Below are positions 1 to 5,405 of a stretch of DNA of 5,405 nucleotides, one piece after another. How positions within the stretch are numbered: position 1 is the stretch's first letter; every line of letters begins with the position of its first letter. The notes beneath the pieces were generated by a model. The model ran no database searches. It was given only the letters and a program-made list of their open reading frames with translations, and had not been told where the DNA came from. Source of the stretch: a virus (lineage: Duplodnaviria; Heunggongvirae; Uroviricota; Caudoviricetes). The stretch lies in the IMG/VR virus record IMGVR_UViG_2534681653_000013. The stretch is one strand, 5' to 3'. The translations under genes were made by a program, and so were the position numbers.

Positions 1-212
1 TCAGCACCTGAATCCGCGATTATCACATATACCTGGTTGCTGATTGCCCCTCCGCACAGGGGGATTCACCATGCGAAATTTTTTTAACAAACGCTCAGCA
101 TGTCAGGCAACATTCAACTGCCTGAATTGTGAGGCATTTAACATTTCACTGTCCGGTGTCTTTCCTGTAATAAAAAGCCCGCAAAAGAGAGTCAGGGCAG
201 ATAAGTGTGGTG

Positions 213-289
213 TGGCGCGTTGTACTGGATTCGGACCAGTGACCGATTGCTTAGAAGGCAATTGCTCTGTCCGGCTGAGCTAACAACGC
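213..289 (-). tRNA. tRNA-Arg, anticodon UCU (reads AGA)
   Basis: Hand-folded minus-strand cloverleaf: acceptor GCGTTGT/ACAACGC, D-stem GCTC/GAGC, anticodon stem ATTGC/GCAAT with loop CTTCTAA, T-stem ACTGG/CCAGT, discriminator G, encoded CCA. Same layout as E. coli argU. T-loop reads TCCGAAT (C at position 55). Confidence 0.75.
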
Positions 290-302
290 TGAATACCGAT
301 AA

Positions 303-379
303 TGGACCGCCATCGGGGACCCGAACCCCGCGCAACCAGCTTCGAAGGCTGGCGCTCTGTCCTGATGAGCTAATGGCGG
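303..379 (-). tRNA. tRNA-Arg, anticodon UCG (reads CGA/CGG)
   Basis: Hand-folded minus-strand cloverleaf: acceptor CCGCCAT/ATGGCGG, D-stem GCTC/GAGC, anticodon stem CCAGC/GCTGG with loop CTTCGAA, T-stem CGGGG/CCCCG, encoded CCA. T-loop reads TTCGGGT (G at position 58). Confidence 0.7.
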
Positions 380-388
380 TATGTGATA

Positions 389-464
389 TGGTGGCCCTTG
401 CTGGATTTGAACCAGCGACCTGGCGATTATGAGTCGCTCGCTCTCACCACTGAGCTAAAGGGCT
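389..464 (-). tRNA. tRNA with anticodon CAU (Ile2 lysidine-type like ileX/ileZ, or elongator Met)
   Basis: Hand-folded minus-strand cloverleaf: acceptor AGCCCTT/AAGGGCC (A1:C72 mismatch), D-stem GCTC/GAGC, anticodon loop CTCATAA, T-stem GCTGG/CCAGC with canonical T-loop TTCAAAT, discriminator A, encoded CCA. Overall resembles E. coli ileX as I recall it. Confidence 0.75.
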
Positions 465-626
465 GGGCGCAGGATAATAACGGTACGTAACTAATCCTGC
501 AATATCATCCGTTCTGACTGACTAAATCCTGAACTTCCCTGACCGTCTGCTCAAAACGTTCAGTCTCCAGCTCAACGCCAATTGCACGACGCCCCAGCGA
601 CATTGCTGCTTTGACGCTACGGACAT

Positions 627-655
627 AAAAAAGCCAGCCACTGGGGGAGGCTGGC
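627..655 (-). terminator. Intrinsic terminator on minus strand (candidate tR' of the late operon)
   Basis: Minus strand reads GCCAGCC-TCCCCCAGT-GGCTGGC followed by TTTTTT: a perfect 7-bp GC-rich stem, 9-nt loop and T-tract, about 255 nt downstream of the Q stop. Confidence 0.6.
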
Positions 656-726
656 AAACTCGTAGAGCAAAATGCTGTTACGCAAACTTCGTTACAGGGT
701 CATCCTGCAATACAAAAAATACACAA

Positions 727-756
727 TATTTAGAAAACTAATAGTGCCATGTGCAA
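727..756 (-). promoter_or_regulatory. Candidate sigma70-like late promoter (PR'-like) between the two terminators
   Basis: Minus strand TTGCAC, an 18-bp spacer, then TAAATA; the start site would lie about 70-90 nt upstream of the 627-655 terminator. Weak match, alternatives exist. Confidence 0.2.
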
Positions 757-835
757 TTTTTAAGATTTTGTTATTAATTGTGGTCGCACCTTCCTTTCTG
801 TGTACTTTCCGTATAGCTCACAGGATTCTGGGTAC

Positions 836-858
836 AAAAAAACCCGCGCATCGGCGGG
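836..858 (-). terminator. Intrinsic terminator-like hairpin about 50 nt downstream of Q
   Basis: Minus strand reads CCCGC-CGATGC-GCGGG followed by TTTTTTT: a 5-bp GC stem, 6-nt loop and 7-T tract. Confidence 0.5.
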
Positions 859-908
859 TTAATAAGCAGCGTGGCAATGTAACCACTCTTATCATGATAT
901 GCAGATTT

Positions 909-1343
909 TTACGATCGTAAACTATTTTTTCGCTGATAAAATACAGAGGTTCTCCCTCCCGGCAATTCACGCTCAACATACCGATCCATCTCAAGCCTCA
1001 CTCCCAGCATCATCAGCATGCCTTCAACAATCCCCTCCGCTTTGTGAAGGCGTTTACCTATACAGGTGTCAGAGCACCCATGTTTCCGTGCCAGCGCCAT
1101 GAACGTCTCCCCCAACACGTAATAATCAACCAGCAAGTCATGCAGATCGCGATTGTTCCGGTAAAGGCGGGCTATACACCCGCATATCACCATCGCATCA
1201 TCGTCACAGCACTGCGGGCGTGATTTTACTTTTTCGGGGATCAGTCCCTTAAAACCGGCGGCAATGGACGACCAGGTCACATCTTCATGATTATTAGCCG
1301 CCCACGCTCCCCAACGCTCAAGAACCATCTGAATATCACGCAT
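909..1343 (-). CDS. quuD: Late-gene antiterminator Q (quuD/Q933-type), 144 aa
   Basis: Track ORF 909-1358; I place the start at the ATG at 1343 because GGAG lies 7 nt upstream (the track's TTG at 1358 is less likely). Translation [24 protein letters not shown]... matches my memory of DLP12 QuuD / 933W-type Q. Cysteine clusters (QCCDDD, CGC, GCSDTC) fit a zinc-binding Q. Sits directly after the nin-type genes. Confidence 0.88.
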
Positions 1344-1389
1344 CAACTTACTCCACAAAAATCAGACCAGAACGCCAATTACAAGCAAA

Positions 1390-1415
1390 AATCAACAAAA
1401 CAGTATTAGTTGATT
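1390..1415 (-). terminator. Weak AT-rich hairpin with T-run between ylcG and Q (possible leaky terminator)
   Basis: Minus strand AATCAAC-(12 nt loop)-GTTGATT followed by TTTTGC; the stem is AT-rich, so predicted stability is low. Confidence 0.2.
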
Positions 1416-1428
1416 GTTATCTCTGACT

Positions 1429-1569
1429 TCATACTCCTGCTCCTGTCAGGGTTTTGGCGTAATTCTTCAGTATTCGGTAATCGGTCAAAACAGAACCGGG
1501 GAAACGATATAAGCGCAGACGCCCCCAGCGGTGGCGAAGAAGTTCTGCCATATTAAACTCAAACATCAT
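1429..1569 (-). CDS. ylcG: Small protein YlcG-like, 46 aa
   Basis: Hand translation: [46 protein letters not shown]. Its ATG overlaps the rusA stop (ATGA). Position between rusA and Q matches the K-12 DLP12 order. Below the track length cut-off. Confidence 0.6.
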
Positions 1570-1928
1570 TCATTCCCCATTTCGGTGATGGTCAGTTCCA
1601 GCCTCCCACCTTTGGTAACAGGCATCTTCACAACGCGGTAATCAACGACCTGAGCATCATCCAGCCAGAAACCTGCTTTAGTGAGTGCGTCAAAAGCGGC
1701 TTTTTGCAGATTATCCAGGTCACGGCGACGGCGATCCGGCATGTGGCACTCAATGCGGATTTTCACAGGCATAGCCAGGCCGATATCCAGCATTGCGTTT
1801 TTAATGATTCGGGCGACGTTATCGCGGTATGCCTGCCCCTCTGCACTGACGTGCGTGCGCCCGCGATTATGGCGGTAATAGCGATTATTGCTCGGAGGCC
1901 AGGGTAATGTGATACTGTAGGTATTCAC
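1566..1928 (-). CDS. rusA: Holliday-junction resolvase RusA, 120 aa
   Basis: Track ORF; translation [26 protein letters not shown]... with the acidic [18 protein letters not shown] region typical of RusA. GTG start at 1928 overlaps the ybcO stop (GTGA). Confidence 0.92.
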
Positions 1929-2215
1929 GCCTTAATAACCCCCTCTTTCAGCCAGATAACCTGTGTTCTCGCCATACCTTCCAGCGCGCATTCTTTTGCA
2001 TATGCAGCATCGACAAAATGTGTGCGGCGGTCGATTTCGTCGTGGCAGGCAGAACATGCAATGGTGGCAATCAGGTCTGGCGGTTTGATACCGGTACCGC
2101 ACAATCCAGCCAGCCGGATATGTGCCAGTACAGACGTTTCAGAATTGCCATTACATACGCCAGGGATTCTTACCTGGCATTCCCGACCACGCGCTGCTTT
2201 TCTCAAATCAGCCAT
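1925..2215 (-). CDS. ybcO: YbcO-like (DUF1364) Cys-rich putative nuclease, 96 aa
   Basis: Track ORF 1925-2254 trimmed to the ATG at 2215, which has AGGAGG 5 nt upstream. Translation [24 protein letters not shown]... carries conserved Cys/His. Its start overlaps the ninE 3' end by 8 nt. Confidence 0.85.
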
Positions 2216-2378
2216 GATTCCTCCTTGCTGCCAGTCGCAACCATTTTTTATCAACCAGGCTAGCGGTATATCCGAGCAGTGTTGGTATTTCGGATGGCTT
2301 CAGCTCAGGCTTACGCTTACGACGATTTGATACTCTGTAGATGTGTCCGTTCATGACACGAATAAGCGGTGTAGCCAT
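2208..2378 (-). CDS. ninE: NinE-like small basic protein, 56 aa
   Basis: Hand translation: [56 protein letters not shown]. Its ATG overlaps the ybcN stop (TAATG). Below the track length cut-off. Confidence 0.75.
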   Translation of the reverse strand: MATPLIRVMNGHIYRVSNRRKRKPELKPSEIPTLLGYTASLVDKKWLRLAARRNHG

Positions 2379-2833
2379 TACGCCTCCTGCTTGTCACGGA
2401 GCTGCTGGAACTCGCAGCTCTGCGGAATAGTCAGATGGCAACCAATATTCATCGCCCAGGCTTCAACCTTACACAGGAAGACATACATCTCTCCGGTATC
2501 AAGATCGGAGGTATGGCGTAACGACTGGATAGTGGTGATATCACCGGTTACGACATCAACCAGGTCTTTGGTTTCATAACCGAGATATGTGTGTTTGAGA
2601 GCATCTTTTACCCAAGCTGGAGTGGCGAACGTTTTACCCCTGCTGATGAGGTATTCACTGATTTCGCTGTACCACATGTGGCTGAGTGCATTCTGGGAAA
2701 GACTGCGTTTCTCACGCCACGGTTTAAGCACCATGCGAAAGCATTTGCCCTCCTCCAGATAAGGCTGGATCTGCCGACCGATAGCGGTGAAGTTGCCGCG
2801 ATGTAATTTGATGCCGTCTTGTGAGAGGTTCAC
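2378..2833 (-). CDS. ybcN: YbcN / NinB-family recombination (DNA base-flipping) protein, 151 aa
   Basis: Track ORF; GTG start at 2833 preceded by GGAGGTG with a 4-nt spacer. Translation [30 protein letters not shown]... matches my memory of DLP12 YbcN. Confidence 0.9.
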
Positions 2834-2931
2834 GCTTCACCTCCGCAGAGGTCAAACGCTAGATGCAAAGAATTGCAGGTGCATTTCTGCATCTGTGAAG
2901 GGAGAAGAGAGTTTGGATTGTATGTGCGCAT
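2830..2931 (-). CDS. ylcH: Small ORF YlcH-like, 33 aa
   Basis: Hand translation: [33 protein letters not shown]. Its stop overlaps the ybcN GTG start (GTGA); GGGGA lies upstream of the ATG. Position matches ylcH in K-12 DLP12. Short, so coding status is uncertain. Confidence 0.5.
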
Positions 2932-2954
2932 AAACGTCCCCGTTTAGCGCAGAA

Positions 2955-2983
2955 GTCACCGGAGTTGTTCAGGCTCCGGTGAC
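2955..2983. repeat. Perfect 10-bp palindrome GTCACCGGAG-N9-CTCCGGTGAC
   Basis: Read directly from the sequence. Lies in the ybcM-ylcH intergenic region, immediately downstream of the candidate -10 at 2987-2992. Confidence 0.6.
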
Positions 2984-2986
2984 ATA

Positions 2987-3015
2987 ATTATGCCGTGTTG
3001 ATTTCCCAAAATCAA
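2987..3015 (-). promoter_or_regulatory. Candidate sigma70 promoter for the ylcH-ybcN-ninE-ybcO-rusA-ylcG-Q block
   Basis: Minus strand TTGATT (-35, 3010-3015), 17-bp spacer, CATAAT (-10, 2987-2992). The predicted start site falls within the right arm of the adjacent palindrome. Confidence 0.3.
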
Positions 3016-3047
3016 AATCGATAGAATTGCTCCTTCTTAAAACACTT

Positions 3048-3845
3048 TTACTCTCTGGAAGCTTTTCTTATCTCTCTTGGTGTTATATTAAAACGATTAT
3101 GAAATCTTTCAGTAAAACGCGAAGGACACTTATAACCATTTTCTCTGGCAATCTCGCTTATAGGTTTTACCGTCGTTTGTATAGCAGACAACGCATTATT
3201 TAACCTCACATCGTCCAGTATACTTTGGAAACTTACCCCCTCGCTTGCTAGACGGCGATGTAATGTAGAAACAGAAATGTAGAGATATCGAGCAACCTTG
3301 TTTGCTGTCCATTTTGTGCCGGGTTCGGATAGCAGCAGGTTATAACAACGACTTATCAATGATTGTTTACTATATGATAAAAGTAAATGATTAACATGAT
3401 TCACTCCTAACGAAAGTAGAACGCCCATTGCTAAGTGCTCCTGAATTTTAGTTGAGAAGCCTCGGGAAACAGATGTTTTTAGTTGCTCCCAACAATATAT
3501 TAACTCAGGATTCTGAGGTAAAAAGAAACTTGTTTTGTTACGTATTTGATCAGTTACCGTATAAAGCTTTTGGAAACTCTCAATTAAATCAATGGGTAAG
3601 TAAAGCATTTCTGCAAGATAAAGCCCTGCTTCAGGATAATTCTCAATATAAAATTCATAACCACAAGGAAATAATATTATTTGATTATTATCAACAGTTA
3701 AAGTATGCGTCTCCCAATTGATAACTTTCTTTCCCTGACGGATACGACACAAAGCTGGCATAAGAGGCTTAACCCTATGAATCTCATGATGTTTATGCAT
3801 CCGTATTTCTTCGATCTTTAAGTTAGTCTTACCTCTTGCCAGCAT
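3048..3845 (-). CDS. ybcM: AraC/XylS-family transcriptional regulator YbcM, 265 aa
   Basis: Track ORF; ATG at 3845. The C-terminal region ([43 protein letters not shown]...) looks like a tandem AraC-type helix-turn-helix. Visibly AT-rich coding sequence. Confidence 0.88.
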
Positions 3846-3854
3846 ACTCTCACC

Positions 3855-4406
3855 CTACTTTATCTCATAAACTGGTGTTATCTCAGCGGTTGCGATTTTA
3901 TTAGCATTAAGCATATAACCAACTAACGCTCCGCTGGAGTTAGAATCTACAGGAATCTTTTCAGTTTTTAGAGCCCATACTTTAAACTGGTAATGATGTG
4001 GTTTATCTCCTTTAGGAGGACATGCGCCACCAAACCCAGCATAGCCAAAATCATTTCGGCCTTGAACAGCACCAGTCGGCAGTTTTGTTCCATCACGTCT
4101 CCCTGCATCAACGGGCAAATATGTTACTGTTGCTGGAATATTAACAACAGTCCAATGCCACCAACCACTGCCTGTAGGTGCATCTGGATCATATACAGTT
4201 ACGGCAAAGCTTTTGGTACCTTCAGGAACACCAGACCAGGTTAATGAGGGCGATGTATTACCACCTTCACACCCAAATCCAGAAAAGACATGAGACGTTG
4301 TAAGTTGCTCTCCTGTTTTTATTTCATTACTAGCGACCTGAAATGCTGCAGCCTGCGCAGAAAATGTTATGAATGCCAATACAGTTGAAACGATAAGTGT
4401 TTTCAT
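3855..4406 (-). CDS. ybcL: Periplasmic PEBP-family protein YbcL, 183 aa
   Basis: Track ORF; ATG at 4406 with AAGAGG about 6 nt upstream. N-terminal signal peptide MKTLIVSTVLAFITFSAQAAA. PEBP/YbhB-family motifs YDPDAP and GDKPHHYQF. Stop is 9 nt upstream of the ybcM ATG. Confidence 0.9.
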   Translation of the reverse strand: MKTLIVSTVLAFITFSAQAAAFQVASNEIKTGEQLTTSHVFSGFGCEGGNTSPSLTWSGVPEGTKSFAVTVYDPDAPTGSGWWHWTVVNIPATVTYLPVDAGRRDGTKLPTGAVQGRNDFGYAGFGGACPPKGDKPHHYQFKVWALKTEKIPVDSNSSGALVGYMLNANKIATAEITPVYEIK

Positions 4407-4622
4407 AAAAACCTCTTTGTTATGACCTATCGTTATTTTATTTGATATTCCTTTATCTCATTATGCATAAAGGCGCAATGTTCATGCAAAAGCAATCACA
4501 ATTGTACCCCCAACCCAATTATTTGCCACAATATACACAAAGCACATTGATACTATCTAAAAACTCTGCTTTATTATTAGTAATACCTACGAAAGTCGGT
4601 GTTATTTTTTAACCTACCATTC

Positions 4623-4672
4623 AAAATACGTGACATACACCATTTTGCTCATAATAATTTGTCACGTATTTT
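4623..4672. repeat. Perfect 13-bp inverted repeat AAAATACGTGACA-N24-TGTCACGTATTTT
   Basis: Read directly from the sequence. Sits in the AT-rich intergenic region upstream of ybcL; candidate operator or paired half-sites. Confidence 0.5.
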
Positions 4673-4870
4673 CAGTATTTGAATCTGCGACCAAGAGTTC
4701 TCACCTAACAAATGATTAAGATTGTATAGCTCATTTACTACCCCAATACAGCCGTACAAAACTCGCTTGTGGGAGCAAACAAAGTAATTACCCATTAAGT
4801 TTCGTTAAAGATAATTAATTCTGTCTTGCACTTTATCATCATAGCATAACTTAAAATCCGAGATCATTAT

Positions 4871-5329
4871 TTAGAAATAAATCTCACCATCAACCATATA
4901 TTTGAGAGCACTTATCGCCTGCTGGGCAGATATTACTTTCATTAAAGGATAGTGTTTAAAAACAATGCCATTCATAAAATAGATATCACAGGTTTTATTA
5001 TCCGTATTAATTATGATTTTTTCGAATATTTTATAGGCAAGTGTACGGCATAACTCTCGTCCATTTTTACTGGTTAAGTCAATAGCATAAAAATCACTGA
5101 ATGAATTTACACCTTTACTCTTCAAAGTTTTCAATGATACCGAAGCCCTTCGTAATTCCTTATCTAATAGTCTTATTTTCTCTGCTATAGCGGTAACTTC
5201 AGGCGCGACAGACAATGCAACGATTAAATTATTAATTTTCATCTGAAGCTCAATAATTTTTAACTCTAAAGTTTCATTAGCATCTTTCTTGTTTTCAACT
5301 GGTTGAATTTTGCTACAATTAAAAAGCAA
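4871..5329 (-). CDS. Recombinase-like ORF, 152 aa as tracked; possibly the C-terminal part of a disrupted ybcK-like serine recombinase
   Basis: Track ORF starting at TTG with no convincing Shine-Dalgarno at TTG 5329 or the internal ATG. Predicted coiled-coil stretch followed by a C-terminal region that resembles large-serine-recombinase C-termini (impression only). In-frame TAA at 5363-5365 closes the frame upstream, while a different frame is open from the window edge to about 5267. Confidence 0.4.
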   Translation of the reverse strand: MLFNCSKIQPVENKKDANETLELKIIELQMKINNLIVALSVAPEVTAIAEKIRLLDKELRRASVSLKTLKSKGVNSFSDFYAIDLTSKNGRELCRTLAYKIFEKIIINTDNKTCDIYFMNGIVFKHYPLMKVISAQQAISALKYMVDGEIYF

Positions 5330-5405
5330 TTCTGAACCGCCCCGGGTTTCCTGGAGAGTGTTTTATCTGTGAACTCAGGCTGCCAGATCATCGTTTCCGA
5401 TGGAA

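Follow-up and report, generated by a model that had tools for sequence, protein, structure and literature searches.

A probable phage-borne ileZ-argN-argO tRNA cassette beside an empty stx slot in the late operon of a lambdoid prophage of Escherichia coli O157:H7

In the stretch of viral DNA analysed here (5,405 nucleotides, hereafter the window), three tRNA genes follow an antiterminator gene Q, and the question is whether such a triplet marks a Shiga toxin phage whose stxAB genes, or other late cargo, would lie just past the left edge, a possibility raised by the first-pass annotation. Our analysis makes it very probable that positions 147-617 constitute a phage-borne ileZ-argN-argO tRNA cassette in a lambdoid late operon, and that the stx slot beside it is empty. 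No evidence contradicting the ileZ-argN-argO identification was met.

Positions 1-5332 of the window show 100% identity with genomes of E. coli O157:H7, among them EC4115 and TW14359, and an apparent IS629 insertion stands at 5332/5333. The matching prophage of stx1-negative O157:H7 strains, EC4115 being one, is located beside mlrA (yehV), with its integrase adjoining mlrA, and its nin region, consisting of ybcN-ninE-ybcO-rusA-ylcG plus ybcKLM, is of the phage 82/DLP12 type. In the EC4115 prophage IS1203 splits gene P, and within the window the end of an IS lies inside ybcK; the prophage thus looks defective, and the cassette may therefore be free of selection here. The features of the late region are as follows.

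909..1343, minus strand: Q antiterminator of 144 aa, 933W/Sp15 type (PF06530, 173.9 bits)
894..921, minus strand: late promoter pR' (TTTACG, 16-nt spacer, TATCAT), identical to the 933W annotation
873..880, minus strand: putative qut (Q-utilisation) element, ACATTGCC, identical to the 933W qut
836..858, minus strand: first intrinsic terminator-like hairpin after pR' (-11.2 kcal/mol, terminator scan)
627..887, minus strand: pR'-to-tR' leader of ~260 nt, homologue of the StxS sRNA precursor
655..627, minus strand: terminator tR' (-14.5 kcal/mol), identical to 933W terminator 2
505..618, minus strand: pseudogene, the 3' part of a DNA methylase gene, at the left end of the tRNA cassette
474..502, minus strand: candidate promoter pT, the cassette's own (TTGCAG, 17-nt spacer, TATTAT), 29 bp identical to 933W
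389..464, minus strand: tRNA with anticodon CAU, ileZ homologue (ARAGORN; RF00005, 66.3 bits)
303..379, minus strand: tRNA-Arg with anticodon UCG, argN homologue (ARAGORN; RF00005, 54.0 bits)
213..289, minus strand: tRNA-Arg with anticodon UCU, argO homologue (ARAGORN; RF00005, 65.8 bits)
172..193, minus strand: decayed terminator after argO, mapping to the 933W 'terminator upstream of the stx genes'
~171..133, minus strand: empty stx (moron) slot, 39 bp against a 1341-bp stx2AB segment in Stx2a phages
1..103, minus strand: 5' half of the sRNA STnc100 (RF02076, 63.7 bits), its 3' side lost at the window edge

In the window ARAGORN detected three tRNA genes and no more; all are minus-strand and stand at the same coordinates (213-464) at which the cluster had been read from the letters alone. 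The Rfam tRNA model RF00005 (gathering score 29) supported each of them, with E-values from 7e-10 to 3e-13. The three are full length, encode CCA, fold as cloverleaves and keep their anticodon loops, and their anticodon order on the late strand (CAU, UCG, UCU) is the order found in 933W. The comparison with ileZ, argN and argO of 933W that had been recommended gave 75/76, 73/77 and 75/77 identical positions, respectively, and the UCG and UCU tRNAs both match EC4115 at 77/77. RefSeq already labels the tRNA triplet at the EC4115 locus; PGAP names the CAU tRNA tRNA-Ile, and ARAGORN names the same tRNA Met from the anticodon alone. Its identity as an elongator Met, which also appears in several phage annotations, was ruled out, as the sequence is 88.2% identical to K-12 ileX and 67.9% identical to metT/metU. 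Because its body is ileX-like rather than Met-like, the CAU tRNA is most likely of the tRNA-Ile2 type and would read AUA once C34 is modified to lysidine. It keeps ileX-like acceptor and anticodon stems, and the acceptor stem (AGCCCUU...AAGGGCC) contains the pairs C4-G69 and C5-G68, both of which TilS uses in tRNA-Ile2. The predicted decoding of CGA/CGG by the argN type and of AGA/AGG by the argO type is reasonable, and the rare-codon assignments proposed at first reading are in keeping with this. The host ileX/ileY and argU share the anticodons CAU and UCU and the predicted decoding, with identities of only 88% and 71%, respectively. To our knowledge, a tRNA-Arg with anticodon UCG is absent from E. 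coli K-12, and the argN type would thus bring a new anticodon and not an extra copy.

The gene upstream of the tRNAs is Q, as had been recognised: the PF06530 match covers profile positions 1-118 of 118, the protein is 97.2% identical to Q of 933W and 96.5% identical to Q of Sp15, and RefSeq labels it 'antiterminator Q family protein' in EC4115. In the annotation the gene begins with the ATG at 1343, and the mechanical open reading frame extends to a TTG at 1358. The promoter pR' overlaps the Q stop codon and was also recovered by a promoter consensus scan; by homology, it probably functions as the late promoter here. Between Q and the tRNAs, where a late terminator had been predicted, two were found, at 858..836 and 655..627, the former identical to the 933W 'possible rho-independent terminator'. 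The leader from pR' to tR' is 98.9% identical to that of Sp15, 98.5% to that of Stx2a_F765 and 93.9% to that of 933W. The transcription start of pR' and the 3' end at tR' were mapped experimentally in Sp5 and Sp15, and the distance from pR' to tR' was 258 nt by dRNA-seq and Term-seq (PMC7547250), with which the leader length in the window agrees.

The cassette at 147-617 lies immediately downstream of Q, pR' and tR' in the lambdoid late operon and may be regarded as a small self-contained insert or 'moron', in which the methylase-gene fragment is followed by the cassette's own pT, the tRNA trio and what is left of a terminator. Two moron traits are its presence or absence at fixed boundaries relative to Sp15, with blastn homology to Sp15 ending at window 618 and starting again at 146, and its own promoter sequence; its 3' terminator, however, is predicted to fold at only -3.4 kcal/mol, against -14.8 kcal/mol in 933W. 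The fragment at 505..618 is labelled 'DNA methylase, incomplete, missing N-terminus' in RefSeq and had no Pfam match; the nin-region methylases of Sp15 and phi296 were considered as its source and rejected, neither showing any similarity to it. A transcription start for the tRNA promoter has been reported in Sp5 (PMC7547250), and the matching sequence suggests that pT may be active in this prophage.

Beyond the cassette, blastn homology to Stx2a_F765 extends over 1345..172 and starts again at 132. Because the homology that in Stx phages follows stx2B resumes at 132, the stx slot lies inside the window and measures only 39 bp, which gives no support to the suggestion that stx or other late cargo might begin past the edge. 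With StxA1, StxB1, StxA2 and StxB2 as queries, tblastn found no toxin gene, either in the window or across 25 kb of EC4115, in line with the first reading that the 212 bp past the last tRNA contain no stx-like start; the sole match, in the capsid gene, was a chance one (E=0.74). Short-word blastn of stx modules against window 1-700 returned shared flanks only and no stx remnant. The slot is followed by STnc100 (RF02076, gathering score 47), which in EC4115 is full length (160.7 bits; L001, 11911-12103) and which in the Stx2a phage stands after stx2B (207.7 bits). Extension leftward in the 100% matches led into STnc100, the anti-sRNA AgvB (96.5 bits; convergent to STnc100 and just left of the window), a NanS-p-type esterase gene whose product shares 92% identity with 933Wp42, and the lysis cassette; no toxin is present, and the idea of downstream cargo thus largely fails. 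This content agrees with the moron site as published (PMC4104026) and is standard equipment of this phage group.

Comparison with named systems places the locus among known ones. Phage 933W (NC_000924, 21120-21371), from whose annotation the gene names and the putative promoters and terminators are taken, shares with the window the three anticodons, their order and spacing and the type of Q, and its pT, pR', qut and two upstream terminators are identical in sequence, so the 933W-type arrangement described at first reading holds element by element. The window differs from 933W in having no stx2AB after the tRNAs, a decayed terminator after argO, a nin region of the phage 82/DLP12 and not the 933W type, and a few substitutions at conserved tRNA positions, namely G1A, U55C, A58G and, at position 37 in the anticodon loop of the UCU tRNA, A in place of the G of argO. 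The Stx2a phages of the Sakai Sp5 type carry the same ileZ-argN-argO cluster. So do the stx-negative lambdoid phages Nil3 (AM051322), Lahn2 (AM072972), vB_EcoP_phi296 and TL-2011a, in the order Q, tR', tRNA-Ile, two tRNA-Arg, and then STnc100 and the NanS region; this group is 93.4% identical over window 2/46-1345 but is unlike the window in its nin region (NinG, NinH, Roi), and its members include inducible phages that are not IS-ridden prophages. In phi296, unlike in the window, both Arg tRNAs have normal T-loops. The moron site with convergent sRNA pairs AsxR/AgvB (PMC4104026) has the same position and logic as the slot in the window, the Stx2a phage having AsxR where the EC4115 prophage has AgvB; Tree et al. 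(2014) described protein-coding morons such as stx, whereas the insert here is a tRNA cassette only.

Three other origins of the locus were weighed against this reading. That the window belongs to a true Stx-converting phage, with stxAB or another toxin just past its left edge, might be suggested by the 94-99% identity of Q, pR', tR' and the tRNAs to Stx2a and Stx1 phages and by the position of stxA2 in 933W, which begins only 90 bp past argO. We give this almost no credence, however, since the post-stx2B homology is already back at 132, the first 103 bases are STnc100, which in Stx phages is located after stxB, and the next genes in EC4115 are AgvB, nanS-p and the lysis genes. It is similarly very hard to regard the tRNA genes as integration remnants or hot spots of the att type and not as expressed phage genes. 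Many phages do use tRNA genes as integration sites, and a 2026 preprint reads tRNA matches near prophage sRNAs as integration-related (10.64898/2026.05.13.724894), but here three full-length, CCA-encoding genes with cloverleaf folds stand behind a dedicated promoter sequence, ~21 kb inside the prophage and far from the integrase/mlrA junction, and they hold the same internal position in the free inducible phages 933W, Stx2a_F765 and phi296.

A former Stx1 phage, that is, a derivative of Sp15 at yehV from which stx1 was deleted and in which the tRNAs are incidental, is somewhat less remote than these two but still quite improbable. Sp15 / CP-933V (Sakai, EDL933) occupies the same yehV (mlrA) site as the window prophage, its Q and pR'-tR' leader are 96.5-98.9% identical, and the downstream block of nanS-p and lysis genes is 93% identical; whether stx1 was lost from the yehV prophage has been left open in the literature (PMC7175801). 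Between these shared blocks, however, Sp15 has 1484 bp with stx1AB, and the prophage has a different cassette of 471 bp that is absent from Sp15, which points to a cassette difference and not a deletion. No stx1 fragment is left in the prophage, its replication and nin modules differ from those of Sp15 (NinG/NinF/methylase in the nin region of the latter), and a crossover lies inside Q, near window 1069. Direct origin of the window from Sakai Sp15 was ruled out, as Sp15 has no tRNAs and a different nin region. Stx2a phages thus combine the tRNAs with stx2, Sp15 has stx1 without the tRNAs, and the window prophage has the tRNAs only.

Granted a tRNA cassette of phage origin, it may be asked whether this copy is decaying in a cryptic prophage, one or more of its tRNAs having lost function. 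The G1-to-A change in the CAU tRNA, a SNP at window 464 (T here, C in EC4115), creates an A1.C72 mismatch, with which the Rfam score falls from 72.5 to 66.3 bits and the predicted fold becomes less stable by ~4 kcal/mol. G1 is present in 114/117 sampled viral-contig copies of the CAU tRNA; the A1 allele in the context of the triplet is absent from 5426 complete genomes (best match 99.6%) and occurs in one viral contig (L102), which has a different prophage background and is 93% identical. The U55-to-C change in the T-loop of the UCU tRNA was seen among sampled contigs in three only, two of which (L043 and L079) are 98-99.96% identical to the window over ~3 kb. These two alleles favour decay, as do the weakened terminator after argO and the IS elements inside P and ybcK. 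On the other hand, all three tRNAs score well over the Rfam threshold with their anticodon loops preserved, a lone 1:72 mismatch need not abolish tRNA function, and G58 of the UCG tRNA, although at a usually conserved position, is a common allele among the sampled contigs. Decay to loss of function is therefore possible in this copy, though we consider it the less probable case.

The triplet is widespread, being present in 2578/5426 complete E. coli genomes, that is, in about half. Forty viral contigs contained the triplet with enough downstream sequence; 21 ran straight into STnc100 and 6 carried stx. The five codons AUA, AGA, AGG, CGA and CGG are 3 to 5 times commoner in prophage genes than in host genes, with 34.7 per 1000 in the late genes and 48.7 in the early genes of this prophage, against 10.4 in flanking host genes; stx1 and stx2 contain 62-69 per 1000. 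Considering these results and the identity to characterised Stx phages, we propose the following scenario for the cassette. In the lysogen, polymerase starting from pR' would halt at tR', giving a short RNA of the StxS type, and pT would provide a basal supply of the tRNAs. Upon induction, Q would carry polymerase past the terminators, so that the tRNAs would be co-transcribed abundantly with the late genes, transcription continuing into STnc100, the nanS-p-type esterase gene and the lysis genes. Host tRNA-processing enzymes would excise the three tRNAs, which may then decode AUA (with C34 lysidine-modified), CGA/CGG and AGA/AGG. The benefit may be quicker translation of phage genes and other horizontally acquired genes, the codons and their tRNAs being scarce in the host.

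It is a correlation of codon usage that suggests this supply function, and the major capsid gene, for which the demand on translation is highest, scarcely uses these codons (just 4.6 per 1000). A literature search for ileZ/argN/argO or the 933W tRNAs together with rare codons found none, the original descriptions probably being outside the journals covered. A less likely function, which we regard as doubtful, is that the cassette serves mainly against nucleases of hosts or competitors by which certain tRNAs are cut or depleted (e.g. toxins cleaving the anticodon loops of tRNA-Arg or tRNA-Lys) and not in the reading of rare codons. In 14/117 sampled phage contigs Lys(UUU)-Thr(UGU)-Gly(UCC) takes the place of the two Arg tRNAs behind the same CAU tRNA, and because Lys-UUU reads a common codon, the rare-codon idea fails to explain this variant. 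Anticodon nucleases classically attack the UUU tRNA-Lys. The argO-type difference at position 37 was also noted beside this reading.

As a discovery the finding is minor, the annotation of 933W having included ileZ-argN-argO ever since publication of the genome. The identification is correct but ordinary, describing an already known tRNA trio, an stx-type set, in a toxin-less prophage. For the interpretation of related phages, a tRNA triplet behind Q does not mark out a Shiga toxin phage, because stx follows only 6/40 of the triplets in the sampled viral contigs, and the state of the toxin slot, here empty, can be read from the window itself. On sequence comparison, the yehV prophage of stx1-negative O157:H7 appears to differ from Sp15 in which cassette stands between fixed boundaries, and not by a simple deletion, and this presence of tRNAs in place of stx1 bears on the question of stx1 loss at yehV (PMC7175801).

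The window carries exactly three tRNA genes, all on the minus strand (ARAGORN), downstream of the Q antiterminator gene; their coordinates from ARAGORN and the Rfam tRNA model (gathering score 29) agreed exactly with those in the first-pass annotation, which had described a three-tRNA cluster in a Stx-phage-like layout. Features annotated in the genome of the Stx2 phage 933W (NC_000924) were projected onto the same strand, giving the following arrangement.

909-1343, minus strand: Q antiterminator gene, upstream of the tRNAs (Pfam PF06530, 173.9 bits)
921..894, minus strand: late promoter pR', identical to that of 933W
880..873, minus strand: Q-utilisation element qut, identical to that of 933W
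858..836, minus strand: terminator 1, identical to that of 933W
655..627, minus strand: terminator 2 (tR'), identical to that of 933W
502..474, minus strand: pT, the putative tRNA promoter, identical to that of 933W
389-464, minus strand: tRNA with anticodon CAT (Rfam tRNA model, 66.3 bits)
303-379, minus strand: tRNA-Arg with anticodon TCG (54.0 bits)
213-289, minus strand: tRNA-Arg with anticodon TCT (65.8 bits)
103..1, minus strand: prophage sRNA STnc100, 5' half only, truncated at the window edge (Rfam RF02076, 63.7 bits)

Base-by-base comparison with 933W paired the CAU tRNA with ileZ (75/76 identical), Arg-UCG with argN (73/77) and Arg-UCU with argO (75/77), bearing out the resemblance that the first-pass annotation had anticipated. 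ARAGORN and several phage records label the CAU tRNA as Met, a label derived from the anticodon alone; its body is 88.2% identical to host ileX and 67.9% to metT/metU, and it keeps the C4-G69 and C5-G68 pairs, indicating not a Met tRNA but one of the Ile2 type, which is predicted to decode AUA once modified with lysidine. RefSeq likewise labels the genes at the corresponding locus of E. coli O157:H7 EC4115 as tRNA-Ile, tRNA-Arg and tRNA-Arg. The argO type, 71% identical to host argU, duplicates the scarce argU function (AGA/AGG). A host comparison was not applicable to the argN type. E. coli K-12 is not known to have a tRNA-Arg with a UCG anticodon, and this tRNA would therefore be an additional decoder of CGA/CGG. 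The decoding previously assigned (AUA, AGA and CGA/CGG) was thus essentially right, and by every sequence-level measure the genes form a 933W-type tRNA cluster.

The predicted regulatory context also matches that of 933W element for element. Identity of Q is 97.2% with 933W and 96.5% with Sp15, the Stx1 prophage of strain Sakai; two intrinsic terminator hairpins, both with T-runs, separate the Q gene from the tRNAs. For the two Sakai Stx phages, Sy et al. (PMC7547250) mapped a distance of 258 nt between the pR' start and the 3' end of tR', and showed that StxS, an Hfq-binding sRNA, is processed from this terminated transcript. In the window, the 261-nt leader between the predicted pR' start and the terminator 2 end (627-887, minus strand) shares 98.9% identity with Sp15 and 98.5% with an Stx2a phage; a StxS homologue is therefore encoded here too, and this stx-negative prophage should produce the regulatory sRNA. 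The leader contains a conserved GUAUU (RNase E-type) site at 713..709. The terminator-like hairpin at terminator 1 (836-858, minus strand) is strong and has a T7 run; only some 30-50 nt separate it from the predicted pR' start, and it falls within the transcript published as 258 nt long. A 3' fragment (37 codons; 505-618, minus strand) from a DNA methylase gene accompanies the tRNA cassette in all Stx2a-type phages examined; the methylases of the nin region showed no relation to it, and no parent gene was found for it.

With only 212 bp of sequence left past the last tRNA, the content beyond the tRNAs had been regarded as unknown, but the window itself holds the answer. Homology with the phage Stx2a_F765 runs from Q to 172 and resumes at 132, the interval being 1341 bp with stx2A and stx2B in that phage versus 39 bp in the window. 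Homology with Sp15 extends from Q as far as 618, a little beyond tR', and is picked up again at 146; the interval is 1484 bp with stx1AB and without tRNAs in Sp15, versus 471 bp in the window, comprising the methylase-gene fragment, pT, the three tRNAs and a decayed copy (193..172) of the terminator that separates argO from stx in 933W (-3.4 kcal/mol, versus -14.8 in 933W). These gaps indicate that the slot behaves as two independent cassettes in series: Stx2a phages carry both the tRNA cassette and stx2AB, Sp15 carries only stx1AB, and the window prophage carries only the tRNA cassette. A search of the window for an stx remnant found no fragment. The Stx-phage-like layout therefore holds for the 933W-type tRNAs, Q and regulatory elements and fails for the stx genes alone; the slot is empty and the prophage is not Stx-converting.

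Nor was stx found beyond the left edge in a search of 25 kb of the matching EC4115 genome. In EC4115 (locus L001), the full STnc100 (11911-12103; 160.7 bits) is followed directly by the convergent anti-GcvB sRNA AgvB (11849-11910; 96.5 bits) and then by a 648-aa protein with DUF1737, SASA-esterase and DUF6645 domains, 92% identical to the NanS-p type 933W esterase 933Wp42; DUF1378, DUF826, holin, lysozyme, Rz and terminase genes come next. An Stx2a phage has the same series, but with AsxR in place of AgvB. Tree et al. reported this arrangement for Sp3, 4, 5, 9, 10, 11, 15 and 17, at the 'moron' site that follows pR' (PMC4104026), and a 2026 preprint (10.64898/2026.05.13.724894) deals with STnc100 and its association with esterase genes. 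The preprint reads tRNA hits near prophage sRNAs as remnants or hot spots of integration; in the records of 933W, Stx2a_F765, phi296 and Nil3, the tRNA cluster is clearly internal and adjoins STnc100.

Positions 1-5332 match exactly a chromosomal prophage of O157:H7 strains EC4115, TW14359, TR01 and many others, except that two single bases differ from EC4115, at 464 and 5028 (the latter, inside ybcK, A versus G). The remaining window genes are ylcG, rusA, ybcO, ninE, ybcN, ybcM, ybcL and the start of ybcK, and the nin region is of the phage 82/DLP12 type. Because 1069-5332 matches lambda-like (lambda/phage 82-like) ECOR phages (98.6%) and 213-1345 matches the late regions of Stx2a phages (approximately 97%), the two sets of relatives overlapping only in the 5' (N-terminal) part of Q (1069 to about 1345), a mosaic junction is placed inside Q at approximately 1069. 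The EC4115 integrase adjoins mlrA (formerly yehV), where Sakai and EDL933 harbour the Stx1 phage Sp15/CP-933V. The stx2a and stx2c genes of EC4115 are at argW and sbcB, respectively, and no stx1 phage is listed for that strain (PMC7175801).

The window copy of the cassette is perhaps not entirely healthy. All close matches, EC4115 included, have C at 464 where the window has T; G1 of the ileZ-type tRNA is thereby changed to A, and the topmost acceptor-stem pair becomes an A1.C72 mismatch. The Rfam score falls from 72.5 bits (EC4115) to 66.3, and the predicted fold loses approximately 4 kcal/mol. In the window context the A1 allele occurred in 0/5426 complete E. coli genomes, and among the matches listed G1 was present in 114/117 copies, the one other A1 copy lying in an unrelated viral contig from a different prophage (L102). 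U55C in Arg-UCU, which EC4115 shares, is rare: among the matches listed only three contigs have it, and of these L043 and L079 closely resemble the window, being near-identical. The Arg-UCG change A58G is a common allele among the same matches. Both changes fall at normally invariant T-loop positions. Position 37 of Arg-UCU is A in the window versus G in 933W argO. Replication gene P of the EC4115 prophage is split by IS1203 (L001 19353-21367, right of the window), and further pseudogenes include that for tail assembly protein T, suggesting that the prophage is defective. The last 73 bases (5333-5405) match, without a difference, the end of an IS1203/IS629 copy with its terminal repeat (100% identity), which places an IS insertion in ybcK after 5332 in the source strain; the best-matching complete genomes among the matches listed have none there, their matches all stopping at 5332. 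The prophage is probably cryptic.

The 266-bp triplet was present in 2578/5426 complete E. coli genomes (coverage at least 80%), at up to 13 places per genome and at 10 in one O157:H7 strain, and an exact 38-mer of the CAU tRNA matched at least 120 IMG/VR contigs. Among the matches listed, the 117 contigs with a callable CAU tRNA included CAU-UCG-UCU in 59, CAU-UCU in 31 and CAU-Lys(UUU)-Thr(UGU)-Gly(UCC) in 14 (L016, L049, L053-L055, L070, L099, L106, L113-L115, L121, L122 and L126), eight of these 14 having a holin gene directly after the set; Lys-UUU decodes a common codon and falls outside a rare-codon explanation. Again among the matches listed, 40 triplets had at least 1.6 kb of following sequence: STnc100 came directly next, as in the window, in 21, stx in only six, and other inserts or none of the probes in 13, proportions that are rough because the sample is limited in size and rich in prophages from related isolates. 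Stx-negative phages with the cluster (Nil3, Lahn2, phi296 and TL-2011a) are already in GenBank. A tRNA triplet behind Q thus belongs to this phage group in general and does not indicate a toxin.

The genes, their identity, their late-operon position and the identical promoter and terminator sequences are direct observations. In lysogens of near-identical phages, transcription starts constitutively at pR' and ends at tR', and the tRNAs are served by a separate promoter (PMC7547250). Upon induction, Q-modified polymerase would pass the terminators and transcribe the tRNAs along with the late genes, and host processing enzymes would free them, which may increase capacity for AUA, AGA/AGG and CGA/CGG. 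The summed frequency of AUA, AGA, AGG, CGA and CGG per 1000 codons was 34.7 in the prophage late genes, 48.7 in the early and nin genes, 10.4 in eight flanking host genes, 61.9 in stx1AB and 68.6 in stx2AB; these counts fit such a tRNA supply, as a correlation only. The capsid gene, the most heavily translated, avoids the five codons (4.6 per 1000).

The cluster is a correctly recognised, already known element that holds no surprise for a specialist. The gains are modest: the toxin slot is empty within the window itself, its two-cassette structure is set out, and a distinction is drawn between Sp15 and the yehV prophage of stx1-negative O157:H7. The relation of these two prophages, whether by stx1 loss or not, was left open previously (PMC7175801); judged from the alignments, the two differ in their cassettes and in the nin module rather than by a simple loss of stx1.
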